64,000 nucleotides of DNA from Candidatus Magasanikiibacteriota bacterium (lineage in GTDB: Bacteria > Patescibacteriota > Patescibacteriia > Magasanikbacterales > GWA2-37-8). The notes beneath the pieces were generated by a model. The model was not told where the DNA came from, made no database searches, and was given only the letters and a program-made list of their open reading frames with translations. Positions 33,855-47,583 of this stretch are shown in pieces (the stretch's first letter is position 1; each line of letters opens with the position of its first letter). The stretch spans positions 212,490 through 276,489 of the forward strand of contig JAGOQR010000001.1 of NCBI GenBank assembly GCA_017991415.1, in the 5' to 3' direction. The position numbers and the translations under genes are program-made.

Positions 33855-33916
33855 AGGCTAGGGGTAGCCGCGTTTTTTAGGTGCTCTGTTTGTGAGATAA
33901 GGTTGGAACTTTTTTG
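33855..33916. repeat. copy of the tRNA-Asn-flank-derived intergenic repeat (hairpin plus GTGCTCTGTTTGTGAGATAAGGTTGGAACTTTTTT)
   Basis: Aligns to the consensus GTGCTCCGTTTGTGGAACGATGTTAGAAnTTTT and is preceded by a GGCTAGGGGTAGCC hairpin. Lies 3' of the GLUG surface-protein gene. Confidence 0.5.
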
Positions 33917-33961
33917 GCTAAAAAAGCTCTTGTCTTTAACATTATATTCTTAAATAGAATC

Positions 33962-36955
33962 TTACCTATTTTTACTAACTATTTTTTTAGTCAGTGACCC
34001 AAAATATCCGTCTGCTGGCAATATATTATAATATTTTTGAAAATTTATAAGAGCTTTTTTTGTACCTGAACCAAAATATATTGTTTCTTGCCCTTTTGAA
34101 CCGTAACCCAATTCCTCGACGACAAAACCCTTGTTATTCAACAATACTTGTAATTGTTTTACATCCTCACCGCGCATTCCTTGTTTTAAATTTCTAGCAA
34201 ACACAAAAGTGCTTTTATCCGATTGCACAGTACAGCCTATATGCTTTCGAACAGTACCATCAAAATTACCATAACTAGCAGTATTAACTTTTTGAGTTTT
34301 TTGCATTTGCATTACAGCTTGTTTTGTTTTTACACCAAAATAATCTGATTCATTTCCAATAGAACCATGCCCTGATTGCGAAACTATAAAACCATTTTTG
34401 TTTAAATATTTTTGCAACTGCCTTACATCTTCACCCGACATACCTATCTTTAGATCACGCGTAAATAAAATTGAACATACATTATCTATATTTTCTCCAG
34501 AAACGCTCTTCTCCCTATCTAACAGGGAAGAGACTGTAATCTCAACACGATTTATCCAAATATCCGCAAACACTGCTTTAATATCTTTAATACCATCCCC
34601 GTCTAGATCAATTTCAGAACTACTACCTAAATCTAATTCAAATTGTTGCGGCTCAGACGACACTGTAAATAAAACTTTTTTATGCAGCGTATCCAAATTA
34701 TCAATCCTTAGCTCATGATCCTGCATATCATTTGTTTTACTTACCAGAACATTGAACATGGCTTGTGACCCAATATACGCAAGCAAATTAATACCACTAA
34801 AACTTACATTTCCGACTACAGATGATTCATACATGCCGATAGTTTTTTCAGTATTTGCATTTCCTACGGCCGGCGCCACTGCAACTATTGCCGTGCCAGG
34901 TGTAACCGCAGCCTGATCCTGATTTATAACTGAAGGATCGCTCATTATTGTAAAATTCCAAACGCCAGAATTAGAAACTCCCGCGTAACTATTGCCATTT
35001 ATATCATCAAAGGCAGTGGCAGCAATAAAAACATAATAGCTGGCTCCATACGCAAAGGTAGAAGATGGATTTATAACAATTTGCGCAGTGCTCGTTCCTG
35101 TTATTTGTGACGAGGTTACATTTATTGTTTCAAAAATAGAATTATCCTCTGTTTTATAAATAGTAATTGCCCCTGCCTGTGCAGTCACCGCTTCACTAAA
35201 GTTAATAACTAAATCAGCGGTTGTAGTAACGTCCAGTGCATTATCCGACGGAAACACTGAAGAAACTGTTGGGTTTGTTTCGTCCGCAACAGTAAAATTC
35301 CAATACGTTGCAGAACTAATACCAACATATGCATTTCCACTGCTATCACTAAAAGCAGTGGAACTAACAAGAACATAATAACTAGCCTCACTAGCTAAGG
35401 CACTAGAGGGATTAATAATAATAGTCGCGGAACCAGATCCAGTAACTTGCGATGAGCTCGCAACAATTGACTCAAACACGGAACCATCATTATTATAAAT
35501 AGTAATCGAACCAGTTGTTGAAGGAATTACTGCTTCCGAAAAATTCAAAACTAAATTTACCGTACTCGATGTGGTAGTGGCATTATCAACAGGAAAAAAG
35601 GAATTAAGAGATGGGCTGGTAATATCTGCAACACTCTGTGAGCGTAAATACGGATAACCGTTGTTAGTTGACCCATCAATATTCCATATAGCAGCGAAAT
35701 CCCAACCGACAAATGTCGCTTGATCTTTCATTTGAATAGTTGTTTTACCAGTAGCCCCACCTGCACTTGATGATTTACCCGAGGTCTGCGTATCCCAATA
35801 TACACTTGATGTAGTAACTCCCCCTCCAGGATTTGTTCCAAGCAAACCTCCGATTGTAGCACCGGTATTTGTTACAAAACCCACAGAATACACCCTAGCC
35901 AAATTTGTACCCCAAACTGAACCTAAAAATCCACCAGAACTATTTGCACAAGTGACGTTGCCAGTAGCATACGAATCCTGAATATATAAATATTCATTAT
36001 ACCCACCAAAACCACCACACGCAGAAGTGCCGTATACATTTCCAGTAGCATACGAGCTGGATACATGCGTACCTGAGCTTAACGCACCTCCTTGACTAAA
36101 TCCAAAAAAACCACCGTTCCAACTTCCCGACGAGGTTACATTGCCGGTAGCGTAAGAACTGTATACATACGCCTGATAAATATGGCCTACAAAACCACCC
36201 ACACCGTTGTTACCATTTGTATTTCCAGTTGCATAGGAAGAACTTACTACTGCACTGCCAGAAATAGAGCCTGCAAAACCTCCTAAACGCTGGTAACCTG
36301 TTACATTTCCCGTTGCATACGAATCGTAAATTCGACCTGCGCTTACATTCCCGAACAAACCACCCACACCTAACCCATTGCCATAAACTATAGCCGTTGA
36401 ATAAGAAGAGCTTACTGTACCACCAGAGAAAGTACCCATCAAACCTCCTGCTGAATAAGTACTAGACACAACTCCAGTAGAATAATTATTAGTACTAGTT
36501 ACTGTTCCAATCCCTACCATAATACCAGCTGAAGCTGAAGCATGAGAGCTGGTCACATTAGCATTGGTAATCCCTAAATTTTTAATTGTAGCGTTCTGCA
36601 CATACCCAAAAAGGCCGACATATTGCGTGCTGGTAGAAATAAATAAATTTGAAATGACATGTCCATTTCCGTCTAAAGTACCTTGAAATCTTAATGATAC
36701 ATTTCCAATCACTGTCCATCCAAAACCCGTATTGTACGGGCTGGTGTTTAAATCAATATCGCTTGTAAGTATAAAAAATTTACCAGATGAAGATGTTCCG
36801 TTATAATTTGCCACTTCTGCCAAATCCGTAGCATTAGCAATTTGCCAAGGGCTACCAGATGTACCACTACCCCCAGAAAAAGCATGGGCGAGCTGGGGTA
36901 CAAATAACAAAATTCCCCAGATAATTATAGTAAAGTTTAAAACGTTTTTTTTCAT
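33962..36955 (-). CDS. giant secreted surface protein with GLUG-type Gly/Ser/Thr/Tyr repeats, Ig-like domains and two C-terminal peptidoglycan-binding (PG_binding_1) domains
   Basis: 997 aa with a signal peptide. About 20 short repeats (Y/S-ATGNVTG..GG..G) like GLUG motifs. Two Ig-like modules. Two copies of a PGBD-type ...GMSGEDVRQLQKYLNKNGF / ...GMRGEDVKQLQVLLNNKGF motif at the C-terminus. Confidence 0.5.
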   Translation of the reverse strand: MKKNVLNFTIIIWGILLFVPQLAHAFSGGSGTSGSPWQIANATDLAEVANYNGTSSSGKFFILTSDIDLNTSPYNTGFGWTVIGNVSLRFQGTLDGNGHVISNLFISTSTQYVGLFGYVQNATIKNLGITNANVTSSHASASAGIMVGIGTVTSTNNYSTGVVSSTYSAGGLMGTFSGGTVSSSYSTAIVYGNGLGVGGLFGNVSAGRIYDSYATGNVTGYQRLGGFAGSISGSAVVSSSYATGNTNGNNGVGGFVGHIYQAYVYSSYATGNVTSSGSWNGGFFGFSQGGALSSGTHVSSSYATGNVYGTSACGGFGGYNEYLYIQDSYATGNVTCANSSGGFLGSVWGTNLARVYSVGFVTNTGATIGGLLGTNPGGGVTTSSVYWDTQTSGKSSSAGGATGKTTIQMKDQATFVGWDFAAIWNIDGSTNNGYPYLRSQSVADITSPSLNSFFPVDNATTTSSTVNLVLNFSEAVIPSTTGSITIYNNDGSVFESIVASSSQVTGSGSATIIINPSSALASEASYYVLVSSTAFSDSSGNAYVGISSATYWNFTVADETNPTVSSVFPSDNALDVTTTADLVINFSEAVTAQAGAITIYKTEDNSIFETINVTSSQITGTSTAQIVINPSSTFAYGASYYVFIAATAFDDINGNSYAGVSNSGVWNFTIMSDPSVINQDQAAVTPGTAIVAVAPAVGNANTEKTIGMYESSVVGNVSFSGINLLAYIGSQAMFNVLVSKTNDMQDHELRIDNLDTLHKKVLFTVSSEPQQFELDLGSSSEIDLDGDGIKDIKAVFADIWINRVEITVSSLLDREKSVSGENIDNVCSILFTRDLKIGMSGEDVRQLQKYLNKNGFIVSQSGHGSIGNESDYFGVKTKQAVMQMQKTQKVNTASYGNFDGTVRKHIGCTVQSDKSTFVFARNLKQGMRGEDVKQLQVLLNNKGFVVEELGYGSKGQETIYFGSGTKKALINFQKYYNILPADGYFGSLTKKIVSKNR

Positions 36956-37124
36956 AATATAGTACAGACAATCATTTTGACAAAAATATTATACCATATA
37001 ATATTTTTTCTTAAAAATTTAATTAACAAAAAAGCCAACGCACACCTTAAAGGTGCCTACCATAATAGATGATATTTTCTTCATTTTTTACAACCGAGCC
37101 ATATGAATAACAAAAATGGTACGT

Positions 37125-37175
37125 GCAATATCAAAAAAATGTTTGGGATGAGGCAAATTTATAACTTTTATTTTA
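37125..37175. repeat. weak/diverged copy of the intergenic repeat (TGTTTGGGATGAGGCAAATTTATAACTTTT)
   Basis: Shares the TTTG(T)GGGATGAGG core with the copy at 40001-40038. Lies 3' of the CDP-alcohol phosphatidyltransferase gene. Confidence 0.3.
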
Positions 37176-37195
37176 TTTAACATGCTTGATAGGAT

Positions 37196-37873
37196 TTAGA
37201 CCTTATTTTTATCATTCAACTGTTTTGCCACCATATCCATTTCCCATATTTTTTTCTGCTCTTTACCAATAACAATAACGAGCCCTAAAAATGAAAAGGG
37301 CAAAATAAATTGCATACTAAACGCCAGATGGGTTTTGCCCAAAAAAATTAACAATGTGTTAATAACAATAAATACAAGACGAATTTCTGTGGGCCCAATA
37401 CCAAGATGAGCAATACGAAACTTATTTGTTGCGGCCATCACTAAAAAAGAATTAATCATAAAACCGGCAACAAGAGAAAAGATAAAGAAAAATATCCACT
37501 TTGACTTATCAGGCAACAAAATCATATACCCAATCATAATGGAAGCAAGAAAAAAATAATCAAGTAAATGATCCATATAATAGCCCCATCGAATCAAGCC
37601 CGTATTCCTTGCCCGACCGACTGCGCCATCGAGCGAATCGGTGAGCCATTGCATTACAATCATTACTGAGACACCCCAAAGCCAGAAAACATCCTTCACG
37701 GCAAAAAAACTAAAAATAATGATTAGCAAACTAATCGGGATTGTAGCAAGCGTAAGATGGTATGTCTGAATTGAAGCTGGTACTTTTGGCACAGCCCAAA
37801 CGATAAATCTTTGCTCCAAGTTATGTAATAAAGATTTTCCAACTTTTTTATCTCCAGAAAATATAGCATCCAT
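37196..37873 (-). CDS. CDP-alcohol phosphatidyltransferase family protein
   Basis: 225 aa. D-S-L-D-G-x2-G-R...G...D...D motif (DSLDGAVGRARNTGLIRWGYYMDHLLD). Polytopic. Confidence 0.65.
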   Translation of the reverse strand: MDAIFSGDKKVGKSLLHNLEQRFIVWAVPKVPASIQTYHLTLATIPISLLIIIFSFFAVKDVFWLWGVSVMIVMQWLTDSLDGAVGRARNTGLIRWGYYMDHLLDYFFLASIMIGYMILLPDKSKWIFFFIFSLVAGFMINSFLVMAATNKFRIAHLGIGPTEIRLVFIVINTLLIFLGKTHLAFSMQFILPFSFLGLVIVIGKEQKKIWEMDMVAKQLNDKNKV

Positions 37874-37933
37874 AATAATTTCAATTAGTAGTGTGTGATA
37901 AATAAAAAAATTATCTTTACGTAAATCTACCGA

Positions 37934-38599
37934 TTACGAAGCTACAATTTGCCCATCAGACAAATGTATTATTCGCTCAGTCATATTACCATACTCTTGT
38001 TCGTGCGTTACCATAACAATGGTCTGCCCTTCTTTGTGTAACTCTAGAAATATTTTCATCACTATCAAACCTGTTTCACTATCCAAATTGGCGGTTGGCT
38101 CGTCGGCAAATAAAATTTTTGGCTTGTGAGCAATCGCTCTAGCAATAGAAACACGCTGCTGCTCCCCGCCAGAAAGTTGTCCGGGCACATTATCTTTTTT
38201 GTTTGCAAGCCCCATTTTTTCTAATGCTTCCATGGCAATTTTTCTAGCTTGCTTTTGGGAATATCCTTGCATGAGTAGCGGCACCATTGTATTTTCTATA
38301 GCAGTTAGTTCCGGCAAAATAGCATAATCTTGAAACACATACCCTAGCTCAATAAGCCTAAAATGCGCGCGCTGGCTAGAGGTGAGTTTATTTGTATCAA
38401 CTCCATTAAGTACAATAACGCCTTCATTTTGATGATCAAGCAAACCAAGCTGATACAAAAGCGTACTCTTACCAGCACCAGAACGACCCATAATAGAGAC
38501 GAATTCACCGTTGGCAATACTTAAATCTATTCCTCGTAAAATAGTGGTTTCTACCGTCCCATTGTAAAATTTTTTAATAATATTTTTTGCTTCAATCAT
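37934..38599 (-). CDS. ABC transporter ATP-binding protein (MacB/LolD type)
   Basis: 221 aa with GRSGAGKST, LSGGEQQRVSIARA and ILFADEPT. Confidence 0.85.
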   Translation of the reverse strand: MIEAKNIIKKFYNGTVETTILRGIDLSIANGEFVSIMGRSGAGKSTLLYQLGLLDHQNEGVIVLNGVDTNKLTSSQRAHFRLIELGYVFQDYAILPELTAIENTMVPLLMQGYSQKQARKIAMEALEKMGLANKKDNVPGQLSGGEQQRVSIARAIAHKPKILFADEPTANLDSETGLIVMKIFLELHKEGQTIVMVTHEQEYGNMTERIIHLSDGQIVAS

Positions 38600-38604
38600 A
38601 CTAT

Positions 38605-39876
38605 TTAATTTCTACCTAAAATTGAATCTAGTGTATTTTTTCTTATTACAAGCCAAGCAGGCAATAGCCCGGCCACTACAGCTGTACACATAATAACGCT
38701 TACTCGCACTGCTGTACCAACATATGGCGCCACCAGAATCCCATCAGAAAATGGAAAGTTAATTGGATGCACATCTATATACGGCTTTAAAAACCCATAT
38801 AAGATTGCAAGCCCAATGGTAATACCGAGGGCAGCATAAAATACAGAAAGCATGACGTACGAAATAATAATCGCTTTACCATCTACACCTACACCTTTAA
38901 GGATGCCGATAAATTTACGACGAGTAATGGCGTTGATAAAAATAACAATAAACAGTGTAATAGTGGCAACGATAAGACCAATACTACCAATAACATTTCC
39001 AAGCAACTCAAACGTAAAAGAAATATCTCTAAAAAATTTTCCTTGCGACTCTTCGGATGTTTGTACTGTAGCAAAGGTATCTACCGACTGGGCTAACAAC
39101 CTATTTTTAAATTCAAGCTCGGTGGTATTACCCACAGTTTTAATGGCAATTTCGTCAACATTATAATCGGGTCGGCCAGCAAACTGGCGCAGCTCCCTAT
39201 CAACCAAATAAATGCGGCGATTTACCTGATCTATTTTGCTTTTAATAATACCTTTGACTGTAAATTCTTTGGCAATACCGCCAAGGGTTATTTTTATTTT
39301 AGTACCAGGCACCACACCTTTAATAGTTTGTTCACCAGTAACATTGCCATTTAAAAATTCTTCTAACAGGCCGCTGCCGATTATAATTTGTCCATTATCA
39401 TCTGGCTCGAAATAATTACCAGCAATTAATAATGACGACAAATTGCTTAGTGAGTTTTCGTCAATAGAATTTATACCTGCCAAGATTGCTGCAGCTTGAT
39501 CGGGCAGCTCAGTTAAATTACTTCTATCTCTGTAATTTGCTTCTACAGTAGCTGCCTCTAAAATGCGGCCCGAAAAAGATTGTACACCCTCGGTAGCCTG
39601 GATAATTTTCAAAATTTGCGTAGAATTTTGAATAAACGCTTTATTAGGCAGACTTGTTAACAGGACATCACCGGAATATTGAGAAATATAGGCATTAGAA
39701 GATCCAGCAATTAAGCCAATAAGAATTCCATTTACCACAACTACATTAAGAAAGGTAAACGTCATCACCACAATGGTTAATGGCGTAGTCCAGCGGCTGC
39801 CACGTTTTAAATTAGACCAAGCCAAAAAATGACCAACACGAATAGAGATAAAAAACTTTTTTAACCAGAGAAACAT
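38605..39876 (-). CDS. ABC transporter permease, FtsX/MacB-like
   Basis: 423 aa. N-terminal TM, a large periplasmic domain and a C-terminal 3-TM FtsX domain. Confidence 0.75.
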   Translation of the reverse strand: MFLWLKKFFISIRVGHFLAWSNLKRGSRWTTPLTIVVMTFTFLNVVVVNGILIGLIAGSSNAYISQYSGDVLLTSLPNKAFIQNSTQILKIIQATEGVQSFSGRILEAATVEANYRDRSNLTELPDQAAAILAGINSIDENSLSNLSSLLIAGNYFEPDDNGQIIIGSGLLEEFLNGNVTGEQTIKGVVPGTKIKITLGGIAKEFTVKGIIKSKIDQVNRRIYLVDRELRQFAGRPDYNVDEIAIKTVGNTTELEFKNRLLAQSVDTFATVQTSEESQGKFFRDISFTFELLGNVIGSIGLIVATITLFIVIFINAITRRKFIGILKGVGVDGKAIIISYVMLSVFYAALGITIGLAILYGFLKPYIDVHPINFPFSDGILVAPYVGTAVRVSVIMCTAVVAGLLPAWLVIRKNTLDSILGRN

Positions 39877-39967
39877 ACAATATTATAGATAACAATTTTC
39901 TAGTGCTAGAATAACAAAAAAAGATGCTACTGACAACACAACAGCCGACAAAAATGGCTACTTAAAC

Positions 39968-40040
39968 AAAACAGGCACTTTCGTACCTGCTCATCCTAAA
40001 CTGCTTCATTTGTGGGATGAGGTTAGAAATTTTTTGACTA
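39968..40040. repeat. copy of the intergenic repeat (CTGCTTCATTTGTGGGATGAGGTTAGAAATTTTTTGAC)
   Basis: Lies between the ABC permease start and the EEP gene stop. Aligns to the GTGCTCCGTTTGTGGAACGATGTTAGAA consensus. Confidence 0.5.
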
Positions 40041-40068: not shown

Positions 40069-40872
40069 CTATACCTCAAATTCTAAAATAAGAGGTAGAT
40101 GGTCGGAAATTGACACATCCGGTACTGTAAGACTCTTTGCTTTAATACCAGCAGAGACAAAAGCATAGTCTGCAAACTCTTGCCAGCCGTTTGACCCAGT
40201 ACCATAATGAGGATATAATTTTTTATGAAGGCTTCCGCGTGTAGTTTTTATAGAAAATTCTTTAATTAAATTAAGAAAACCTGCTCTTTCAAACATAGCA
40301 ATACTTTCGGTATCAGGTAAAAGATTAAAATCTCCAACAATAATCTTTTCACCCGATTGTTCATTAATAAAATCAAGAATCTTTTGTGATTGAGCTAAAC
40401 GTTCTGGACTGTCTAATTTATTACCAGGCTCAGATACACCATGGACATTACAAACAGTAAGCTGCTTACCGTTAAGTAAAAACTGCACCCAATGCAAGTT
40501 AGCAGGAAAAGATTCAAAATCATTTAAAATAAATGAATTTAGACTATTACAAACAAAGAACTCACCTGTTTTATTAACAGTAATTTTTTGATTTACAAAA
40601 GTAGCCACTCCTGTATCTACCTCTTCTCGAACTATAGTAGTTTGATCAAAATGTTCCTGTGCAATAGCAAAAAAACTCTGCGATTTTTCTAATCTTTTTT
40701 TAAACTCATCAAAAAGATTAGCTTTGGCACCATTACTTATAAACGACCCTTTAGAAGTACGTAAAACTTCTTGGAAACAAAATATGTCAGTATCACTGGC
40801 ATTTGCTTTAATAAAAGCTACAAGTGGGTCAAAAATCTTACCACCGTAGGTATTTAATGAAATAATCTTCAT
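40069..40872 (-). CDS. endonuclease/exonuclease/phosphatase (EEP) family protein
   Basis: 267 aa with EEP catalytic motifs (N-terminal ...IISLNTYGG...FCFQE; C-terminal SDHLPL). Confidence 0.6.
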   Translation of the reverse strand: MKIISLNTYGGKIFDPLVAFIKANASDTDIFCFQEVLRTSKGSFISNGAKANLFDEFKKRLEKSQSFFAIAQEHFDQTTIVREEVDTGVATFVNQKITVNKTGEFFVCNSLNSFILNDFESFPANLHWVQFLLNGKQLTVCNVHGVSEPGNKLDSPERLAQSQKILDFINEQSGEKIIVGDFNLLPDTESIAMFERAGFLNLIKEFSIKTTRGSLHKKLYPHYGTGSNGWQEFADYAFVSAGIKAKSLTVPDVSISDHLPLILEFEV

Positions 40873-40962
40873 ACTTTAAAGCTCGATATTAATTACAGAT
40901 CTTATTCTATCTTCTTCGCTAATTGTAGTCAATCATGCTCCAAAACTTAGAGCTGGCACATA

Positions 40963-41026
40963 AAATAACCACTTGGTTAAGTGGTTATTTTATGTGCTCC
41001 ACGGATTATGTCTTTTCCGAACTTTT
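40963..41026. repeat. diverged copy of the intergenic repeat (AAATAACCACTTGGTTAAGTGGTTATTT hairpin plus TATGTGCTCCACGGATTATG...)
   Basis: Same two-part architecture (terminator-like hairpin followed by TATGTGCTCC...). Between the EEP and HAD genes. Confidence 0.45.
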
Positions 41027-41047: not shown

Positions 41048-41656
41048 TTACTCTAAACTAACATCTATACACCTAAGGTAATCGCCAAAGCTAGCAGCAT
41101 CAGTATACACATAGCCACCTATACCTAACTTAATTGCGGTTTTTACATTGGCCTCTGCATCATCAATAAATATTGCTTCTTCAGGTTTTACATTTAGTTT
41201 CTGTAACGCGTGTAAATAGATATCATCCTCTGGTTTTATCATTCCTACTATAGAAGAAATTACTATTTCGTCAAATAGACTTTTAAAATCAGGATATGTA
41301 GGAAAAACCTTTCGATCAAAGAAGGTATGATTGGCATTAGAAAGTAATCCTACTTTAAAATCTTGTTTTCTAAGGTTTTGTATTATGCGTACTAAATTAT
41401 GATCTATCTCTAAATAGCTATCAATTTCATTTCTAAGATCTTCTTTAGATAGCGTTACTATATCGTAATTCAAAAAGTAATCTAACAGATTATCTTCAGA
41501 TAATTGACCAAGATCAAATTTTTTTAACGTACTTTCTAAATTTTCATCAACTAGTCCGTACTTTTCTCGTTTATCCTTGTGCCAACCACCAATAAAAGGC
41601 TTAAGAATAACACCGAAGCAATCGAATATGAAGGTGTTAATTTTTTGATTTTGCAT
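41048..41656 (-). CDS. HAD-superfamily hydrolase
   Basis: 202 aa. Motif I FIFDCFGV and motif IV-like FIDDAEANV. Confidence 0.65.
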   Translation of the reverse strand: MQNQKINTFIFDCFGVILKPFIGGWHKDKREKYGLVDENLESTLKKFDLGQLSEDNLLDYFLNYDIVTLSKEDLRNEIDSYLEIDHNLVRIIQNLRKQDFKVGLLSNANHTFFDRKVFPTYPDFKSLFDEIVISSIVGMIKPEDDIYLHALQKLNVKPEEAIFIDDAEANVKTAIKLGIGGYVYTDAASFGDYLRCIDVSLE

Positions 41657-41873
41657 ATTAAATCTGCCAGATGATTAAGTAATTATTTTCAATGATTTCC
41701 AAGCTTAAACATGAAGAATAAAAAATTACAATTCCTTCTGGATTTGCTCCCACGCTTGTTTAAATATACTCATAGATATTTATTGTTAGCACAGAATTGA
41801 TCTTATCGTCAATATTATACACCAATGTAGATTGGTGACACAAACTTATCTATCTGCACAAGTTTATAGCGCA

Positions 41874-42395
41874 CTAAACAGACCCATCAACACCCCAATT
41901 CTCACTAGCTACAAAACATTTTATATTGTTATCAATAAGAAGTTTGTAAAAACTTTCTACATGTCTTTGACCACAGATAAAGATGGCTCGGTCATCAGTC
42001 TCTTCCCTAATTTTTTCTAACCAATAAAGCTCCCTGAGCTTAAAATCCTCTTTTTCAATTTTACTTATATCATCTTGTCTATAATACTTATTACCAGGTA
42101 TGCCAAGCTTATGTATAATAGTTTTAGTATCAGCTTCAATCAACTTTCTTTCTTCTTTTCCTGGATCGCAAAATTTATGCCTGACATTCTTTTTTTTAGC
42201 CACCGTTTTTGTAAGACTAGCAGTTGCGCGCCATACCGACAACGCTTCTTCACTGAACTCCTCAGCAACTAGTGTTGCACCGAATCTGTCAATGAGCTCA
42301 CCTAAATATTTAGCGAAGCTATTATTTAAATCAGGGTCGCTGCTGTCGTTTATAAATTGGACTTTATGATTCACTCCAATCAGATACACAATCAT
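41874..42395 (-). CDS. hypothetical protein
   Basis: 173 aa, soluble, no recognisable domain. Confidence 0.3.
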   Translation of the reverse strand: MIVYLIGVNHKVQFINDSSDPDLNNSFAKYLGELIDRFGATLVAEEFSEEALSVWRATASLTKTVAKKKNVRHKFCDPGKEERKLIEADTKTIIHKLGIPGNKYYRQDDISKIEKEDFKLRELYWLEKIREETDDRAIFICGQRHVESFYKLLIDNNIKCFVASENWGVDGSV

Positions 42396-42420: not shown

Positions 42421-42466
42421 GTTTTGGATATGCAATCCGTTTATGGGATGATGTTCAAACTTTTTT
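42421..42466. repeat. copy of the intergenic repeat core (GATATGCAATCCGTTTATGGGATGATGTTCAAACTTTTTT)
   Basis: Abuts or overlaps the stop codon of the gene at 42469-43122. Confidence 0.5.
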
Positions 42467-42468
42467 AT

Positions 42469-43122
42469 TTACAAATCAAAACTCTTAACTACTCGTGTTG
42501 CTACATACTTTCTATTTTCCAAAATCAACTTAGATGGCTTTAATTCGGGGTTAATTCTCAGCAAATTCATTATAAGAAAATAGCCTATATTATACCCAGC
42601 AGATTGAGGGATCTTTTTTTCTTTTGAGCCGTAAAACCAATCATCATAACTATATTCTTTGAAAAAGAATTCTTTTTTTGCTTTTTTTAATACTCGCTTT
42701 AACTCTACAGCGCTTAGCCATGCAAAACTATTGGAATAACCTGCCCCTGTAATTTCTGCTTCAAAATGGCTAGCAAGACCTTCTTCAATAAACTCATCAA
42801 GTAAAACTGTCCCGTCCTTTACTTTTTGCGCATGTGTTGTGTGGTATAATTCGTGAGCCAAAGTTCTTAAGAAATTCATATACAAATGTTTCTGGAACTG
42901 TTTTGACTGTGCGTTTAAACGAATATTTATTCCATACTTACCATGTGTTTCACCACTCATCTCACCAAACTCAAGATCATGTTCAATAACAATATCAACA
43001 TCAGATACTGGTATATATTTGGAAATAACACGGATAGCTTTATGTGCTGTATCGAAAATTATTTTTTTATGAGGCTGCAACACTGGATCGTTGGTCAATA
43101 CATGGATATTTATATTTTTCAT
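42469..43122 (-). CDS. putative Zn-dependent protease (HExxH; DUF2268-like)
   Basis: 217 aa with a HELYH zinc-binding motif (LAHELYHTTHAQK). Confidence 0.45.
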   Translation of the reverse strand: MKNINIHVLTNDPVLQPHKKIIFDTAHKAIRVISKYIPVSDVDIVIEHDLEFGEMSGETHGKYGINIRLNAQSKQFQKHLYMNFLRTLAHELYHTTHAQKVKDGTVLLDEFIEEGLASHFEAEITGAGYSNSFAWLSAVELKRVLKKAKKEFFFKEYSYDDWFYGSKEKKIPQSAGYNIGYFLIMNLLRINPELKPSKLILENRKYVATRVVKSFDL

Positions 43123-43187: not shown

Positions 43188-43256
43188 AAACCAAAAAACA
43201 CATGGTTAGGAGGGAATGATATGTGCTCCGTTTGTGGAGCGATGTTAGAACTTGTT
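43188..43256. repeat. copy of the intergenic repeat (degenerate hairpin plus TATGTGCTCCGTTTGTGGAGCGATGTTAGAACTTGTT)
   Basis: 6 nt after the stop of the lipase-like gene. Adjacent to a perfect palindrome TTTCTAGCTATAGCTAGAAA at 43164-43184. Confidence 0.55.
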
Positions 43257-43266: not shown

Positions 43267-43989
43267 CTAAAATTGTCCTATATTTAAAAATTTTGTGATG
43301 GCGCTAATTACTTCATCTCCATTCATTATCCATGTATGCTCTCGTTCCACAACAAGAAAATCCTTCATATTCTCTAGTGCCGTTCTCTCTTGAGAAACTT
43401 TTTCATCATATTTTCCAGCTATTATTCCCACATCATAGTTTGGTAAAGGAAGCTTATTTACAAAGCTATTTTCATTTGTAGTCAGCTCTCTTAATGCCGG
43501 GCCCATAAAAAAATTCACAAATCGGTTATTAGCCCACTTATCAGCAGTTTCACTCCCTTTATTTGGCGGGGCAAGCATTACAACTCTGTGCAAATTTTCT
43601 ACTTCGTTAGTAGCCAGATAATATCGCACCATCACCCCTCCCATTGAATGGGTTACAAAATTTATTTTCCTGTCTTTATCTGTATATTTTTTATCCAGCT
43701 CATTAATTAAATCTTTTTTAACAAGATTTTCTATCGTATCACTCCTTGATGCATAGTTGAAATTTATTACTCTATATCCCTTTCTACTAAGAGACGTTGC
43801 AAGTTTTTGCATTGAAAAGGACGTCCTTCCAAGGCCATGTAAAAGCACTACGTACTCCCCCTTATTGTCTGTAAGCGATTTTGAAACAGCATGGGTTTCA
43901 TAAAAAAGAAAAACACCTAAAAATAGGACAGTGATTACAATTATATAAAATAAATACCGTAAAATTTTCTTCATATAAATATTCCACAT
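43267..43989 (-). CDS. alpha/beta-hydrolase (lipase/esterase-like, PGAP1-type)
   Basis: 240 aa with N-terminal TM and a nucleophile elbow THSMGG (GxSxG). Confidence 0.6.
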   Translation of the reverse strand: MWNIYMKKILRYLFYIIVITVLFLGVFLFYETHAVSKSLTDNKGEYVVLLHGLGRTSFSMQKLATSLSRKGYRVINFNYASRSDTIENLVKKDLINELDKKYTDKDRKINFVTHSMGGVMVRYYLATNEVENLHRVVMLAPPNKGSETADKWANNRFVNFFMGPALRELTTNENSFVNKLPLPNYDVGIIAGKYDEKVSQERTALENMKDFLVVEREHTWIMNGDEVISAITKFLNIGQF

Positions 43990-44050: not shown

Positions 44051-44090
44051 ATCGCTCCGCTGTCTAGACAAAATTAGAACTGATTTTATT
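44051..44090. repeat. degenerate copy of the intergenic repeat (ATCGCTCCGCTGTCTAGACAAAATTAGAACTGATTTT)
   Basis: Shares GCTCCG...TTAGAACT with the consensus. Immediately upstream of the island C promoter. Confidence 0.35.
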
Positions 44091-44150
44091 CACAATAGAT
44101 ATGATATAAACTTTATTATCTAAAAAACGCCGCTTGCCCAACACATTACA

Positions 44151-44179
44151 TTGACAGTCCGTTCTTTTTATGCTACACT
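44151..44179 (+). promoter_or_regulatory. consensus sigma-70 promoter TTGACA-N17-TACACT
   Basis: TTGACA at 44151-44156, 17-nt spacer, TACACT at 44174-44179. About 115-nt leader. SD GGAGAG 6 nt before the ATG at 44293. Confidence 0.5.
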
Positions 44180-44292
44180 CATCGGCTATATTGGTTCAGG
44201 TTCTATATCGATGTCTGTGGCGAATACCACGGAAATCGGTAGGGGTCTGACCCCTAACTACTCGACCACACATCAACATCGGAGAGATCGTC

Positions 44293-44850
44293 ATGGTGAA
44301 TACCTGCCGCAGCTTCGGCTGCATCCTGCTGGCCCTGGTCATCCTTGGTGGCTGCGGCTCGACCGACAAGCCGACCCCAATCTGCGCCCTCATCAGCGTC
44401 AACCCCAACACGCCGATGGGTAGCCAGATCGGACCCGGCGGCACGTGGGATCCGAAGGGAGAGGCCCAGACGGTCCTAGCCTTCACAATGTTCAGGGTGG
44501 ACGGCGAGGGCTGCCAAACGGCAACTTTCACCGGTCTACCCATGAGGGTTGACCCGAACACAAGCCAGTTCGTGATCGGCCGAAACTTCAGACTCGTCAG
44601 CGAACTGAATGGCCGCCTCGTCGATATCTCGGTCGGCACAATCATGAGCGACGGGAAACTCAACGTGAAACTCCAAACGAGAGAAAATCTCGAAAAAGGC
44701 AGCCGCTACTTTCAACTGCACCTGGACACGAGCAGCGCGCAACGTGGCGACAAGCTCGCTATCATCAGTGGCGCCGTCGAGTACGAGATCAGCGGGAAGA
44801 AGTTCACTTCGTACCAGCTGTGGTACGCGCCGCCACCGATCGAATACTGA
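44293..44850 (+). CDS. lipoprotein of unknown function encoded by high-GC island C (foreign composition)
   Basis: 185 aa. Signal peptide plus lipobox LVILGG|CGS. About 60% GC with GC3-rich codons. No recognisable domain. Confidence 0.5.
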   Translation: MVNTCRSFGCILLALVILGGCGSTDKPTPICALISVNPNTPMGSQIGPGGTWDPKGEAQTVLAFTMFRVDGEGCQTATFTGLPMRVDPNTSQFVIGRNFRLVSELNGRLVDISVGTIMSDGKLNVKLQTRENLEKGSRYFQLHLDTSSAQRGDKLAIISGAVEYEISGKKFTSYQLWYAPPPIEY

Positions 44851-44870
44851 TCAGACCACAAGGTCAGATC

Positions 44871-44923
44871 AACTGAACGGCTCGGATTCGCTCACGCGAC
44901 CGAGACGGTCAGACTTCATCCGA
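44871..44923 (+). terminator. 15-bp perfect inverted repeat (CTGAACGGCTCGGAT ... ATCCGAGCCGTTCAG) 3' of the island C gene
   Basis: GC-rich stem with a 23-nt loop. No immediate T-run. The AT-rich repeat terminator follows at about 45085-45112. Confidence 0.4.
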
Positions 44924-45029
44924 GCCGTTCAGATAGTGCAGTAATTTCTTGCTACATTATCTGAGCTCGGATGTTATAAATAACATAAATTTAAAAACAA
45001 CCTTTTAACAGATGGTTGTTTTTATTTTA

Positions 45030-45145
45030 AAAAATACAAATAAATAAAATTCGAACATCCAATAAACGTCAATTCAAAAACCCGCATGGTTAGCGGGTTT
45101 TGGATTTATGCTCCGTTTGTGGAACGATGTTAGAAATTTTCTCAA
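45030..45145. repeat. full-length copy of the tRNA-Asn-flank-derived repeat (AAAACCCGCATGGTTAGCGGGTTTT hairpin plus GATTTATGCTCCGTTTGTGGAACGATGTTAGAAATTTT)
   Basis: Hairpin identical to that 3' of tRNA-Asn. The flanks also match the tRNA downstream flank (GAATTGACGTTTATTGG... vs GTATTGACCTTTACAAGG...). Confidence 0.65.
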
Positions 45146-45153
45146 CCCAATTA

Positions 45154-45963
45154 CTAAGAATGTCGCAATATCATTCTTACCTCAGGCATAGTCTTACCTG
45201 AGGGCAGCTTTGCTAAATCTTCCACTGGAGGCTCTCCTATCTTTTCAAAACCCATTTTCTCATAAATAGTAATGGCTTTATCATTGTACGTCACAACATC
45301 CAAAACAATATTCTTATCTGAACCTAACCAGTCTACACCTTGTTTTATCAGTTGTTTGCCTATGCCCCGCCCTTGATATTCTGGCGACACATAGACAGCG
45401 CCAAGCTTGTTTTCTTTATCTCCTTTTTCTAATGAGATAAAGGCAACAACTGCATTTCCATCTTTAACAACTTCAACTCTATTTTCCTGCTCCAAAAGAA
45501 ACTTCTTCCAACGCGCAAGACGTTCAGGGCCAGTAAAATCTTTTGCTAGAATTTCCTCAGTAGTTATGTCATACTCCTTATTTACGTATGTTGCAAGCCA
45601 GCCAGCTTTCTGCACTTCCATAATACCTGGGATATCATCAAAGGCTGCTTCTTGTATCTGGAAATTTCTTTTATTTCTCAATCGCTTGTATGCGAGAACT
45701 ATTAGATTTAGCAGAAGAAAATAGAAAAGTGTGTTACCGAGAAATGGTAATAAATAGAAATGATCTTCTGGAGGACCCAACATACCTACTATTGATGAAC
45801 AACAATTATCCCTTAGAAATATGAACGGAAAACCGCCTTGAGGTATAGAACTATCACCTTGATATGAAGTTTCGTGAGTAAATGAAACGTAGGCTATAAT
45901 TAGAGAGACTACAATTAAACCAAATTGTTTAAAGATTTTTTTCATATTTAAGCATTTACACAC
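45154..45963 (-). CDS. GNAT-family acetyltransferase with N-terminal membrane segment
   Basis: 269 aa. C-terminal GNAT fold (QGRGIGKQLIKQGVDWL...). Confidence 0.6.
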   Translation of the reverse strand: MCKCLNMKKIFKQFGLIVVSLIIAYVSFTHETSYQGDSSIPQGGFPFIFLRDNCCSSIVGMLGPPEDHFYLLPFLGNTLFYFLLLNLIVLAYKRLRNKRNFQIQEAAFDDIPGIMEVQKAGWLATYVNKEYDITTEEILAKDFTGPERLARWKKFLLEQENRVEVVKDGNAVVAFISLEKGDKENKLGAVYVSPEYQGRGIGKQLIKQGVDWLGSDKNIVLDVVTYNDKAITIYEKMGFEKIGEPPVEDLAKLPSGKTMPEVRMILRHS

Positions 45964-45964
45964 T

Positions 45965-46354
45965 TTACCTTGGATACTTTTCTACCAATTCTAAGGTATA
46001 CACTTTTGCCCTAATCGTTTTCTGTTGTGCCTGGAATGCTTTTACCAACCGGTGAACACCATCAATAACCAACCATTTGTCATTTTTGTTTAGTAGAAGA
46101 ATAGGAAATTGCAGGTCTGCCTGCTTAACTCGTTCTTGGTGGATACTACTCCCTTCAACTTTATTAATAACATCCCAAGGAGTTAAGTTCCAATCGTCAG
46201 TGCCGTCTTTTTCCCAAAGCGGTAGATCAAAATTCCAGATTAGTTTATCTATGTCAAAATCTACGATTGGCAAATCTAGCTCTCGTAATTTTACGGTATC
46301 ACAATAAATTTCATAACCAGCGTCAGTGAGGATTTTATATTTTTCATTTATCAT
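45965..46354 (-). CDS. hypothetical protein
   Basis: About 129 aa. The track ORF begins with a non-ATG codon; the first ATG is MINEKYKI. No domain recognised. Confidence 0.3.
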   Translation of the reverse strand: MINEKYKILTDAGYEIYCDTVKLRELDLPIVDFDIDKLIWNFDLPLWEKDGTDDWNLTPWDVINKVEGSSIHQERVKQADLQFPILLLNKNDKWLVIDGVHRLVKAFQAQQKTIRAKVYTLELVEKYPR

Positions 46355-46372
46355 ACCATTTAATCTTATCAA

Positions 46373-46470
46373 AGGTTCGAGCGTCTCGTAAAGGTCAATT
46401 CAAAAACCCGCATGAATAGCGGGTTTTAGATATGTGCTCCGTTTATGGAACGATGTTAAGACTTGTTGAA
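46373..46470. repeat. full-length copy of the tRNA-Asn-flank-derived repeat (AAAACCCGCATGAATAGCGGGTTTT hairpin plus GATATGTGCTCCGTTTATGGAACGATGTTAAGACTTGTT)
   Basis: Near-identical to the tRNA-Asn 3' flank over about 100 nt, including GAATTGACCTTTACGAGACGCTCGAACCTTTGAT vs GTATTGACCTTTACAAGGCGTTAGAACCTTTTGT. Confidence 0.65.
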
Positions 46471-46491
46471 TTGTTAAAAACAAGATAAAAA

Positions 46492-47391
46492 TTAAATATT
46501 TGTAGCAGAAAGCACTGTCTTGGTCTTGTACTTATCAAATACAGTTGCGAATAGTATCGTAAGCATAATAATTATCCCATTAGACACCAGGGCAAAATGT
46601 TGATTTATTAAAAGCAATCCAATGACTATAATAGTAAGTAGCAGGGCGTTTAACGGAGAAAGCTGAGATCTTTCTTCATACCTGGAAGCAGACACTTCTT
46701 TTTCTTCCTCATAACGTTTACGTGCAGCAACTTGGACTTCTTTTTCGCTCATTCCTTTTACATTTATATTATAGAATCGAAATGGAGAGAAATGATATAA
46801 AAAGGAAGCATATAAAGCAGCATGTCCGAAGGCCATACCTAAGGCTAAAAAAGATAGTGGTACGAGCGTGGATATGTTACCCAAAAAATTACCATATACC
46901 TCAACATAATTAAAATTGATGACTGTAGTAGTAATAATCAGAATTAAATACCAAATGATAAACAACAATTCTTGCCATCGCCTAGGCGGAACGGGAATAA
47001 AGGCATTAATAATAGTAAAACAAGAAAAGATCACAAAGAGAGCTAACAACCCAGGAGGCAAATTACTTTGTATGACAAAATAAATAGCAACTAAATTAAC
47101 TACCAATAAAGATGTTTCATTTAAAGAAAAAACAACTTTTTTTCTAAAAAAGAACATGATAAAAAAAGGCAATATGGCAAGCCAAAAAAGGAGAGCGGAA
47201 ACGAAAAAAGTTCCCGGTTGCTGATCTGGAAATAAAAAAATAGTGGCTGGCAATGAAATAAATGAGAGTGCTATAGCTTTCAGAAGTCCGGACAGACTCT
47301 TTCTAAAATCTTCAAAAAAATTAATTGATAAAAAAACTTGGGAAAATACCCCTAGGATAAATACACTGATAAACAGCAGGTTAGGCTCCAT
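46492..47391 (-). CDS. hypothetical polytopic membrane protein
   Basis: 299 aa, 8 or more TM, C-terminal charged region. Confidence 0.35.
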   Translation of the reverse strand: MEPNLLFISVFILGVFSQVFLSINFFEDFRKSLSGLLKAIALSFISLPATIFLFPDQQPGTFFVSALLFWLAILPFFIMFFFRKKVVFSLNETSLLVVNLVAIYFVIQSNLPPGLLALFVIFSCFTIINAFIPVPPRRWQELLFIIWYLILIITTTVINFNYVEVYGNFLGNISTLVPLSFLALGMAFGHAALYASFLYHFSPFRFYNINVKGMSEKEVQVAARKRYEEEKEVSASRYEERSQLSPLNALLLTIIVIGLLLINQHFALVSNGIIIMLTILFATVFDKYKTKTVLSATNI

Positions 47392-47400
47392 ATCTAATTT

Positions 47401-47511
47401 GTTTGTTAGCTACATCGCAATAGTATCATACTAACCCAAAATACAAAAGGTTCTAACGCCTTGTAAAGGTCAATACAAAAACCCGCATGGTTAGCGGGTT
47501 TTTGATATGAG
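47401..47511. repeat. master copy of the repeat: 3' flank of tRNA-Asn (tRNA end GGGAGCTCATATC plus AAAACCCGCATGGTTAGCGGGTTTTT terminator plus TTGACCTTTACAAGGCGTTAGAACC)
   Basis: The dispersed repeats reproduce the last bases of the tRNA acceptor arm (GGAGC-aCATATC) and about 100 nt of its downstream flank. Confidence 0.6.
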
Positions 47512-47583
47512 CTCCCGGGGTCAGATTCGAACTGACGACCAATTGGTTAACAGCCAACTGCGCTACCGCTGCGCTACCCGGGA
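47512..47583 (-). tRNA. tRNA-Asn (anticodon GTT)
   Basis: Minus-strand cloverleaf. Acceptor TCCCGGG/CCCGGGA, D-arm GCGC-AGCGGTA-GCGC, anticodon loop CTGTTAA, T-arm GTCAG-TTCGAAT-CTGAC. CCA not encoded. Confidence 0.8.

Follow-up and report, generated by a model that had tools for sequence, protein, structure and literature searches.

Genes and repeated junctions downstream of tRNA-Asn

The window analysed here is a 64-kb stretch of DNA (64,000 nucleotides; contig JAGOQR010000001.1 of assembly GCA_017991415.1, positions 212,490 to 276,489) from a Candidatus Magasanikbacteria MAG, a tiny-genome candidate-phyla-radiation (CPR) bacterium with an 831-kb genome. About 15 kb of the window next to the gene for tRNA-Asn(GTT) is occupied by small gene cassettes separated by a repeated junction sequence. 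The features are as follows, in window coordinates, read away from the tRNA; junctions are named by their position in kb.

47511-47583 (minus): tRNA-Asn(GTT), found by ARAGORN and Rfam (69.8 bits); its 3′ end ...GGGAGC is the fixed left edge of the island
47449-47510 (minus): right half of the first junction, with trailer TCATATC, GC hairpin/terminator AAAAACCCGC-TAACCAT-GCGGGTTTTT, and flank GTATTGACC..GTTAGAACC
46492-47391 (minus): cassette 1, a 299-aa membrane protein with no Pfam family (KBC69_01400)
46374-46464 (minus): junction c46.4, with core 46435-46464, trailer and hairpin 46402-46434, and flank 46374-46401
45154-46354 (minus): cassette 2, a 129-aa hypothetical protein (45965-46354) plus a GNAT acetyltransferase (45154-45963)
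45049-45138 (minus): junction c45.1, with core 45109-45138, trailer and hairpin 45076-45108, and flank with inverted core-like CGTTTATTGGATGTTCGAAT 45049-45075
44293-44985 (plus): cassette 3, reversed, a high-GC (0.50) 185-aa lipoprotein gene (44293-44850) followed by a conserved three-hairpin element (44848-44985)
44052-44082 (minus): decayed core (CAGTTCTAATTTTGTCTAGACAGCGGAGCGA), seen by eye and below the nhmmer threshold
43267-43989 (minus): cassette 4, an alpha/beta-hydrolase (lipase-like)
43191-43253 (minus): junction c43.2, with core 43224-43253 and a decayed copy of the CCCGC hairpin 43191-43223
42469-43122 (minus): cassette 5, a DUF2268 predicted Zn protease
42427-42462 (minus): junction c42.4, a core with trailer CATATC; the hairpin is lost
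41048-42395 (minus): a 173-aa hypothetical protein (41874-42395) and a HAD hydrolase (41048-41656), separated by 217 nt that hold a possible GGGAGCAAATCC remnant
40962-41024 (minus): junction c41.0, with a decayed partial tRNA 3′ end (AATCCG..TGGAGCA) 40995-41024 and a distinct hairpin AAATAACCAC-TTAACCA-AGTGGTTATTT 40962-40994
40069-40872 (minus): EEP (Exo_endo_phos) nuclease/phosphatase cassette
39967-40031 (minus): junction c40.0, with core 40002-40031 and terminator hairpin 39967-39990
37196-39876 (minus): three-gene cassette of an FtsX-like permease, an ABC ATPase and a CDP-alcohol phosphatidyltransferase
37140-37167 (minus): decayed core (AAGTTATAAATTTGCCTCATCCCAAACA), seen by eye and not significant by nhmmer
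33962-36955 (minus): 997-aa surface protein (Big_5, PG_binding_1)
33846-33911 (minus): junction c33.9, with core 33882-33911 and terminator hairpin 33846-33878
32348-33779 (minus): distal island genes with no recognisable junctions (glyoxalase-like, DUF1761, DUF1801)

On the gene-sense (minus) strand, a 30-nt core (AAGTTCTAACATCGTTCCACAAACGGAGCA) follows the stop codon of six cassettes at distances of 6-50 nt, and three more copies are decayed. A profile search recovered six core copies (at 46435-46464, 45109-45138, 43224-43253, 42427-42462, 40002-40031 and 33882-33911), all on the minus strand. The three tRNA-proximal junctions also carry the same GC hairpin terminator and about 45 nt of flank found directly after tRNA-Asn. 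The hairpin AAACCCGCATGGTTAGCGGGTTT occurs three times, at 45078, 46404 and 47479, with 0-2 mismatches, and the 26-nt core pattern also occurs three times with up to 3 mismatches, whereas for both the number of matches expected in 100 shuffles was 0.00. A 92-nt direct repeat joins 45023-45114, 46349-46440 and 47424-47515 at 72-79% identity. The hairpin is intact only at the three tRNA-proximal junctions and decays with distance, and a MAFFT alignment places the core against the T-loop-to-3′-end of tRNA-Asn. Every well-kept junction has a GC stem followed by a T-run, and promoter-like sites, which are consensus matches only, lie between junction and start codon for most cassettes.

The array of repeats reported in the initial annotation is real and non-random, although some of its details needed correction. 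The copy it placed at about 40963-41026 is not a core but a decayed partial tRNA 3′ end (AATCCG..TGGAGCACATA) followed by a different hairpin. Its copies at 44051-44090 and 37125-37175 are visible but too decayed for nhmmer, and its "possible" copies at 6865-6895 and 41743-41770 are not significant, although the second may be a GGGAGCAAATCC remnant. The high-GC gene, which it called foreign, is on the plus strand, opposite to the other cassettes, and its only homologues are in related Magasanikbacteria arrays, so that a foreign origin is not shown. The accessory region, which it gave as about 7.5-14 kb, is 32.35-47.51 kb (about 15.2 kb) by comparison with relatives. Its statement that no integrase is present in the window was confirmed: Pfam scans of 60 window ORFs, and phmmer searches with XerD and resolvase query sequences against six-frame translations of about 230 kb of window and related-locus sequence, revealed no tyrosine or serine recombinase.

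Variation of the island among related genomes

To evaluate whether the array is variable, we compared the window with the corresponding loci of relatives (denoted by L numbers). The conserved flanks end at window position 47506 and synteny resumes at 32347, and the whole 32.35-47.51 kb stretch is a hypervariable island, the content of which differs in every genome sampled. Relatives sharing 77-89% identity in the flanking 716-aa gene (L013, L016, L019, L041 and L044) carry different gene sets after the tRNA, whereas a 59% relative has the acyltransferase block directly after the tRNA. An intact tRNA-Asn is present in the window and in the relatives, in each of which non-conserved DNA begins after ...GGGAGC, and the trailer directly after this sequence differs in most of the nine genomes compared.

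The same cassettes (299-aa, 129-aa, EEP, high-GC lipoprotein and DUF1801) were found at different positions in different genomes. Homologues of the 299-aa gene sit in other array positions in L043 and JGI 3300050046, the EEP cassette is the first cassette after the tRNA in L016 (79% aa identity), and the DUF1801 gene sits elsewhere in L013. The hairpin and flank of junction c41.0 are orthologous to the tRNA-adjacent ones in L016, and the EEP cassette keeps its own upstream hairpin type in both contexts. The 129-aa gene is 90% identical in L019, where an M23 peptidase replaces the GNAT. An independent metagenome contig (L034) again shows tRNA-Asn, hairpin, small ORF and core.

The position of the joint was mapped by comparing junction halves. 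The right half (trailer, hairpin, flank) of junction c46.4, which is joined to a core, is 92% identical to that next to the complete tRNA in L034 and 91% identical to that next to a partial tRNA copy in L019, whereas the left halves are unrelated at 55-57%. This maps the joint to ...GGAGC/AYATATC (the slash marks the joint). Furthermore, L019, a 77%-identity relative, has two exact 18-nt copies of the tRNA 3′ end (AAATCCGACCCTGGGAGC) inside its array, each preceded by non-tRNA sequence, and c41.0 in the window is a decayed copy of the same kind. In the window the identity with the tRNA otherwise amounts to only GGAGCA plus the trailer (6-13 nt).

A profile search with the core in 171 kb, which did not include the rest of the 831-kb genome, gave 15 hits with E<1e-5, all 15 of which lie downstream of tRNA-Asn on the cassette-sense strand. 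There were no core hits in about 49 kb of the window outside the island, nor in the non-island parts of ten related loci. A scan of genome contigs returned only chance hits, and no helper element with this att sequence was found in viral, phage or plasmid collections.

Origin of the array

The initial annotation offered three readings, namely serial site-specific integration at the tRNA-Asn 3′ end, an integron-like array, and a REP/MITE-like module that spreads on its own. Its interpretation is supported, the first of these being the best supported. It had named in advance the combination of no recombinase nearby and invariant cassette order as counting against it; only the absence of a recombinase was found, in the sequence searched, and cassette order is highly variable.

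In the reading that we consider more likely than not, with moderate confidence, the stretch between tRNA-Asn and the conserved acyltransferase gene is a stack of self-contained mini-elements of one to three genes, laid head to tail, and would mark a dedicated hot spot for gaining and losing accessory genes. On the gene-sense strand, each element would consist of a short trailer (YATATC), a GC hairpin predicted to act as an intrinsic terminator, about 45 nt of flank (G-W-ATTGAC ... GTT[A/C]GAAC), in most cases a promoter-like site, the ORF or ORFs, and a 30-nt core ending in GGAGCA that mimics the T-loop-to-3′-end of tRNA-Asn (GTTCgAA ... GGGAGC). New elements would be inserted by site-specific recombination between the end of the element's core (...GGAGC/AYATATC) and the last bases of tRNA-Asn (...GGGAGC/), such that the tRNA stays intact, the site is regenerated, and older elements are pushed outward, where their junctions decay. 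Recombination between any two junctions could delete or excise blocks, which would give the different orders seen in relatives. Because the recombinase is not encoded in the array, in this view it must act in trans from elsewhere in the genome or from a helper element. Our data directly show the repeat anatomy, the position of the joint, the restriction of cores to this locus within the sequence searched, the presence/absence and positional variation among relatives, and true partial tRNA copies in one relative, whereas circular intermediates, the recombinase, its class and its action on the units, and insertion only at the tRNA-proximal end are inferred.

Some observations fit this model less well. 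Apart from the lack of a recombinase or helper element in the sequences searched, the 6-13 nt identity with the tRNA in the window is short for a classical tRNA-type att site. ORFs can be swapped between constant junctions with no junction between them (GNAT versus M23 after the same 129-aa gene, and a cupin versus the 129-aa gene behind the same flank), which simple whole-cassette insertion does not explain. A variable region starting right after a conserved tRNA is also what homologous replacement would give.

A possible but less likely alternative is that there is no dedicated recombinase, and that the junctions are conserved terminator and promoter spacer modules between which, and between the conserved tRNA and acyltransferase flanks, cassettes are exchanged by ordinary homologous recombination (for example, after DNA uptake). 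This is consistent with the junction right halves being 75-92% identical over about 75 nt within and between genomes, long enough to anchor homologous exchange, with the replacement of ORFs between constant junctions, with the lack of a recombinase nearby, and with the tRNA being the natural end of homology. However, it does not explain how the repeat arose or why it copies the tRNA 3′ end and trailer, the exact 18-nt partial tRNA copies preceded by unrelated sequence in L019, the sharp common breakpoint at GGAGC/A, or why cores occur only at this locus in the sequence searched.

An integron-like system appears unlikely, although it remains open as an analogy. In this view each junction (core, hairpin and inverted core-like flank, about 100 nt) would be an attC-type site that folds as single-stranded DNA, the tRNA T-arm and acceptor end plus its flank would play the attI role, and an IntI-like enzyme encoded elsewhere would capture and reorder cassettes. 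The junction begins with (G)TTCTAAC directly after the ORF and its flank carries GTT[A/C]GAA[C/T], in the canonical order and orientation of the RYYYAAC and GTTRRRY boxes of attC (PMC5027507); the individual sequences are TTCTAAC, TCTTAAC or TTCCAAC at the ORF-proximal end and GTTAGAA, GTTCGAA or GCTCGAA in the flank, with about 6 of 7 matches each. The flank resembles an inverted core lacking 3-4 nt, so that the extra bases lie on the AAC arm of the top strand, as attC extrahelical bases do, but this similarity is statistically weak (permutation p from 0.009 to 0.6 per unit). In the minimum-free-energy folds, c45.1 pairs its outer arms around the GC hairpin, whereas c46.4 and the tRNA unit form only the central hairpin. 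The junction length of about 95-100 nt, the co-oriented ORFs and the homogeneity of sites within a genome are as in chromosomal integrons. However, the cassette boundary maps 5′ of the hairpin at GGAGC/A and not inside R′ (G/TTRRRY), as shown by the shared right halves and by the EEP cassette keeping its own hairpin type, and internal partial tRNA copies are not produced by attI x attC exchange. The strong terminators and the promoter-like sites are unlike promoterless integron cassettes read from a common promoter, and no intI is present in the 64-kb window.

A self-spreading REP/MITE-like palindromic terminator element, coincidentally clustered next to tRNA-Asn, is very unlikely, because although the unit is a roughly 100-nt imperfect palindrome centred on a hairpin and always lies between genes, all 15 significant core hits in the 171 kb searched are in one orientation downstream of tRNA-Asn, copies coincide with gene presence/absence boundaries among relatives, and no RAYT or transposase was found.

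Comparison with previously described systems

The tandem accretion of integrase-less att-flanked elements (CIMEs, cis-mobilizable elements) at tRNA 3′ ends, described for streptococcal ICE/IME islands (PMC5704250), resembles this array in that the elements lack integration and transfer genes but keep att-type joints, are stacked in tandem at the 3′ end of a tRNA gene that stays intact, include older, decayed units, and are presumed to depend on a recombinase acting in trans. However, the units here are 0.7-4 kb with one to three ordinary genes, not decayed 10-100 kb ICEs or IMEs, and at least nine are stacked. The joint carries a conserved 30-nt tRNA-mimic core plus a terminator hairpin rather than a plain 20-50-nt tRNA repeat, the host is a CPR bacterium, and no cognate integrative element has been seen.

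The tycheposon-shaped genomic islands of Prochlorococcus (bioRxiv 10.1101/2020.12.28.424599) likewise occur in a streamlined genome next to specific tRNA genes, are built, as proposed for this array, by successive integrations that push older material inward, contain scattered partial tRNA remnants, and carry niche genes. Tycheposons are defined by their own tyrosine or large serine recombinase plus replication modules, none of which is present in this array, and no such recombinase is present in the related arrays. The junction repeat here is a structured core-hairpin module, and the units are mostly single genes.

Integron cassette arrays without integrase (CALINs) and sedentary chromosomal integrons share with this locus a co-oriented array of single-ORF cassettes, each ORF being followed within tens of nt by a roughly 100-nt imperfect palindrome that, here with about 6 of 7 matches to each attC box, starts with a ..YYYAAC-like sequence and has a GTTRRR-like one at its far end. 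In addition to the differences in boundary, terminators, apparent promoters and intI given above, the array here is anchored on a tRNA gene, and partial tRNA copies occur inside a related array.

Tandem ssrA (tmRNA)-specific genomic islands have been studied in Dehalococcoides (PMC3146451). As in the reading proposed for this array, repeated site-specific integration at the 3′ end of a small RNA gene reportedly gives tandem islands separated by direct repeats of that 3′ end, although those islands are large and carry their own integrases.

Repeat units downstream of tRNA-Asn

The region examined is 36-38% GC, with two high-GC patches at 23-24 kb and 44-45 kb, and contains tRNA-Asn(GTT) at 47511-47583 on the minus strand. 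The 716-aa ORF at 47645-49795 (minus strand) is identical to the protein KBC69_01410 of a Candidatus Magasanikbacteria MAG, on an 831,086-bp contig, and the tRNA lies between KBC69_01400 and KBC69_01410. The initial annotation described an array of direct repeats derived from the 3' end of this tRNA gene, and this observation held, although some of the individual copies did not. A 26-nt core pattern (up to 3 mismatches) and a 23-nt hairpin pattern each matched three times, whereas 0.00 matches of either were expected in 100 dinucleotide-preserving shuffles. A 92-nt direct repeat was found to link 45023-45114, 46349-46440 and the tRNA flank 47424-47515 at 72-79% identity. An assembly artefact was ruled out, because an independent Logan assembly is 100% identical over 13.7 kb of the array and relatives show the same architecture.

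On the minus strand, which is the sense strand of nearly all genes here, the unit reads as a stop codon, 6-50 nt, the core AAGTTCTAACATCGTTCCACAAACGGAGCA, YATATC, the hairpin plus T-run AAAACCCGC-N7-GCGGGTTTTT, and the flank G-W-ATTGAC...GTT[A/C]GAAC. MAFFT placed the core against the T-loop-to-3'-end of the tRNA (AGTTCGAATC...GGAGCTCATATC). A profile of the core found six copies in the window and none in the other roughly 49 kb:

46435-64, minus strand, core
45109-38, minus strand, core
43224-53, minus strand, core
42427-62, minus strand, core
40002-31, minus strand, core
33882-911, minus strand, core

Two further copies (44052-82 and 37140-67) are recognizable by eye only. The copy reported at about 41.0 kb is not a core but a decayed partial tRNA 3' end (AATCCG..TGGAGCACATA) with a different hairpin, and the two copies that had been listed as possible, at 6865-6895 and 41743-41770, are not significant. 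The CCCGC hairpin is intact only at the tRNA and the two nearest junctions, is visibly decayed at 43.2 kb, and is replaced or lost further out, a gradient that fits tRNA-proximal insertion. A conserved hairpin within the core itself was considered and rejected, because the possible stems shift between copies. In Rfam searches, only tRNAs reached the gathering score, and so the core-hairpin is not a known RNA family.

To evaluate how specific the core is to this locus, a 15-sequence core profile was searched against both strands of 171 kb, made up of the window plus ten related loci. It was found that 15 hits had E<1e-5, all on the cassette-sense strand and all downstream of tRNA-Asn, whereas the next best hit had E=0.065. 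This argues against a dispersed REP/MITE family within the sequence searched, which leaves out roughly 770 kb of the genome. A scan of genome contigs with a degenerate core pattern, among representatives that do not include the source species, gave 10 single hits in unrelated taxa, which is the chance level (about 17 expected). A scan of metagenome contigs gave 19 hits, of which only two contigs, L029 and L034, are true family members. L034 independently shows the same layout, consisting of the C-terminus of the 716-aa homologue, tRNA-Asn, the CCCGC hairpin and flank, a cupin ORF, a core, and a terminator.

Related loci and the position of the joint

Syntenic loci were fetched with the flanking 716-aa protein. 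The upstream block (Methyltransf_21, DUF6938, a 107-aa gene, the 716-aa gene, and tRNA-Asn) is conserved throughout, whereas what follows the tRNA differs in every genome, as shown in the table.

Table. Genes after tRNA-Asn in related loci (locus; identity of the 716-aa gene; genes after tRNA-Asn).
L013; 89%; DUF1905, DUF1428, a reversed high-GC gene
L044; 87% (same sample as locus L014); 477-aa gene, DUF6624, high-GC lipoprotein
L041; 81%; the high-GC lipoprotein first
L016; 77%; the EEP gene first
L019; 77%; 144-aa, 262-aa, 129-aa plus M23, high-GC, 445-aa
L017; 59%; the acyltransferase/515/642-aa block directly

By blastn, the conserved flanks end at window position 47506 and resume at 32347, so that the island is 15.2 kb. 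The sequence immediately after ...GGGAGC differs in most of the nine genomes compared. Short-read contigs repeatedly break at the tRNA or at a core (L002, L014, L015, L016, L019, and L042), as expected for a repeated or heterogeneous locus.

Five window cassettes were found to recur elsewhere at other positions:

299-aa gene: first in the window; after a high-GC cassette in the related locus L043; directly before the acyltransferase in a JGI contig
129-aa gene: second in the window; third in L019
High-GC lipoprotein gene: fourth in the window; first in L041; last in L044
EEP gene: about eighth in the window; first in L016
DUF1801 gene: last in the window; after the 644-aa gene in L013

The variable zone may extend beyond 32.3 kb. 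In L017, a core copy (16769-16801) follows the 636-aa gene, and gene content after the 642/644-aa gene also differs between relatives: the window has a P-type ATPase there (25952-27856), L044 has DUF3592, a 133-aa gene and Polyketide_cyc2 (3764-5232), and L013 has DUF1801, a cupin and others (14200-17424). The acyltransferase/515/642 block may itself be an old large cassette.

The position of the joint was mapped by comparing junction halves. The right half of the junction at 46.4 kb (trailer, hairpin and flank; 75 nt) is 92% identical to the right half next to the complete tRNA in L034 and 91% identical to the one next to a partial tRNA copy in L019. In contrast, the three left halves, which are a core, a full tRNA and a partial tRNA copy, align only at noise level (55-57%). 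The EEP cassette keeps its own distinctive hairpin (AATAAYCRC type) both next to the tRNA in L016 and deep in the window array. Therefore, the breakpoint is at ...GGAGC|AYATATC, 5' of the hairpin, and the hairpin and flank travel with the downstream ORF.

L019 also has two exact 18-nt copies of the tRNA 3' end (AAATCCGACCCTGGGAGC), each preceded by unrelated sequence, which is the classical signature of integrase-mediated insertion into a tRNA gene. In these two L019 junctions (4148-4241 and 5275-5367), a module of about 105 nt lies between the GGAGCA of the core and the trailer, reading AAAC, the hairpin ATAAACACCTC-ATTTCC-GAGGTGTTTAT, about 45 nt, and then the 18-nt exact tRNA-Asn 3' end. 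The window-type junction is the same thing without that module, a decayed copy of which is present in L041 (4990-5030), and the module may be the fuller form of the att region.

A second, unrelated junction repeat (YTGAACTATWGYAAACCCYACTTGTRTWCTATTGTARTAMTCACTAA, about 80% identity between its two copies) flanks the 299-aa cassette in L043 (955-1010 and 2065-2120), and beside it are a degenerate tRNA-like 3' end (GGTTTGATCCCAACCCTCGGAGCCA) and a terminator. The same ORF can therefore sit between different junction families. In L020 (GCA_016182085.1, JACOYB010000004.1, 12284-12822), a relative with 52% identity in the 716-aa gene, tRNA-Asn(GTT) is split in the anticodon loop by an insert of about 540 nt that holds a 108-aa ORF and a group I intron (Rfam RF00028, 73.9 bits, E=8.6e-19).

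Search for a recombinase and interpretation of the array

No recombinase was found. Pfam scans of 60 window ORFs gave no integrase, resolvase or transposase, and the gene tables of the related loci list no integrase family either. A phmmer search with sequences of E. coli XerD and gamma-delta resolvase, against all six-frame segments of at least 70 aa from the window and related loci (about 230 kb), gave nothing below E=0.18. Searches of viral contigs and of phage and plasmid collections with four DNA patterns, the whole junction and two cassette proteins found nothing, and so no helper phage or plasmid was identified. The 716-aa gene, which always sits immediately upstream of tRNA-Asn in relatives down to about 50% identity, was considered as a hidden recombinase. 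This was rejected, because the protein is soluble and E/K-rich, has a GEIGGDELTLAV (GGDEF-like) motif and no Pfam match, and is conserved in relatives that have none of these junction units directly after the tRNA.

The interpretation that we favor, with moderate confidence, is serial site-specific insertion of integrase-less mini-cassettes at the tRNA-Asn 3' end by a recombinase acting in trans, followed by decay and by deletions between junctions. The repeat units, their variation among relatives and the breakpoint come from the sequences themselves, whereas the recombination step is an inference. Of the origins proposed in the initial annotation, serial integration at this tRNA is the one that the analysis supported best. 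This process corresponds to tandem accretion of CIME-type elements (PMC5704250) and to tRNA-anchored island building as in Prochlorococcus (bioRxiv 10.1101/2020.12.28.424599). The unusual features are the very small units and a structured, tRNA-mimicking junction, in a CPR host.

It is also possible, although less likely, that the cassettes turn over by homologous recombination between the repeated junctions. This would explain the exchange of ORFs inside otherwise constant cassette frames: the same 129-aa gene and downstream core are kept, but GNAT in the window (45154-45963) is replaced by an M23 peptidase in L019 (5842-6270), with no junction between the two genes, and the same hairpin, flank and 5' leader precede a cupin in L034 (reverse complement, 422-760) and the 129-aa gene in the window and L019. 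However, it does not explain the origin of the repeat, the partial tRNA copies or the sharp breakpoint. Both processes probably operate.

An integron-like mechanism using single-stranded DNA appears unlikely. By the published definition (PMC5027507), an attC site has RYYYAAC and GTTRRRY ends, folds as an imperfect hairpin with extrahelical bases on the arm that carries AAC in the top strand, and recombines in the R box. The junction resembles such a site in that it starts with TTCTAAC-like sequence just after the ORF, its flank carries GTTAGAA or GTTCGAA and looks like an inverted core lacking 3-4 nt, and in the junction at 45.1 kb the predicted fold pairs the outer arms around the GC hairpin. 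On the other hand, the inverted-core similarity is weak statistically (p from 0.009 to 0.6 per unit, and the units are not independent), two of three units do not fold that way, the mapped boundary is not in R', each site is a predicted strong terminator with promoter-like sites downstream, and there is no intI within the sequence searched. We therefore regard the array as working somewhat like an integron rather than as a member of that class. A REP/MITE origin is very unlikely on the evidence of the 171 kb searched.

A more speculative possibility, which we consider doubtful although it is not excluded, is a cassette-capture platform specific to CPR bacteria that works like an integron but is built differently. 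In this view, the T-arm and acceptor end of tRNA-Asn plus its terminator would serve as the fixed insertion site, and a roughly 100-nt unit of tRNA-mimic core, hairpin and inverted core would serve as the portable recombination site and would also insulate each cassette with its own terminator. A trans-encoded recombinase of a kind not yet identified would stack and shuffle single-gene cassettes, giving these minimal genomes a dedicated accessory-gene store. If the recombinase proves to be new, or if the site is used as folded single-stranded DNA, this would be a second, independent invention of the integron principle. It is also speculation that the predicted terminator may itself be part of the recombination site: the hairpin has 9-10-bp inverted arms around a 7-nt loop, which is the geometry of a tyrosine-recombinase core site, and the same few loop variants (TAACCAT, TATTCAT) recur across genomes.

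CPR (Patescibacteria) bacteria have genomes of about 0.8 Mb, and full-text searches of the paper library consulted found no description in them of integrons, attC arrays, cassette arrays or tRNA-anchored cassette stacks. The principle of tandem integration at a tRNA is known, whereas the form seen here, with single-gene cassettes that appear from sequence to be insulated, a core-hairpin junction, no integrase found in cis and a CPR host, is not. This locus shows that close relatives differ mainly by which small envelope, hydrolase or transport genes are stacked at one tRNA gene, and that the cassettes, predicted to be insulated expression units, reappear in different orders in different lineages. 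This provides a concrete, testable route by which reduced genomes gain and lose accessory functions, at a junction that is short and well defined.

High-GC genes and other features of the region

Genes of 55-66% GC were found in this roughly 36% GC genome and in its relatives:

Window 44293-44985, plus strand
Window about 23050-23850, minus strand
L013 8779-9315
L019 3465-3899 and 6552-7229
L041 4206-4769
L043 102-797
L044 1098-1826 and 10001-10561

In the arrays, these genes lie on the strand opposite to the cassettes, and the window and L041 copies are preceded by a consensus promoter (TTGACAAAA..TTTTTATGGTATAT). The proteins are mostly unrelated to each other and have no Pfam family. The initial annotation called the lipoprotein gene foreign, but this is not supported: the lipoprotein has only 4 homologues among 5.8 billion proteins, all from related arrays, and so the high GC content is not explained by an obvious foreign donor.

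A conserved element of about 130 nt with three hairpins starts at the stop codon of the high-GC array genes:

Window 44848-44985, plus strand
L019 6400-6562, minus strand
L041 4072-4210, minus strand
L044 10559-10700, plus strand
L043 1-105, minus strand

The element has 48 predicted pairs, 4 of them with compensatory changes among 4 sequences, and has no Rfam match. It is kept even where the adjoining ORF differs (a PRTase-like gene in L019, a lipoprotein elsewhere). A different long hairpin (TTCTCCAGAG...CTCTGGAGAA) follows the 23-kb high-GC gene and its counterpart in L044.

Outside the array, positions 1-27000 of the window hold a dense set of metal and ion homeostasis genes (ZnuA/ABC/ABC-3, Fur, TerC, a Na/Ca exchanger, MgtC/DUF4010, a P-type ATPase, YibE/F, and ApbE/FMN_bind/NQR-like), which is a lot of transport capacity for a 0.83-Mb genome, as well as an Ada-type methyltransferase, an ECF sigma factor and GreA. 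Within the 997-aa ORF, five copies of a 21-nt motif spaced 81-102 nt apart were found at 35954-36322 (minus strand), and these probably reflect tandem repeat domains in the Big_5/Glug surface protein.
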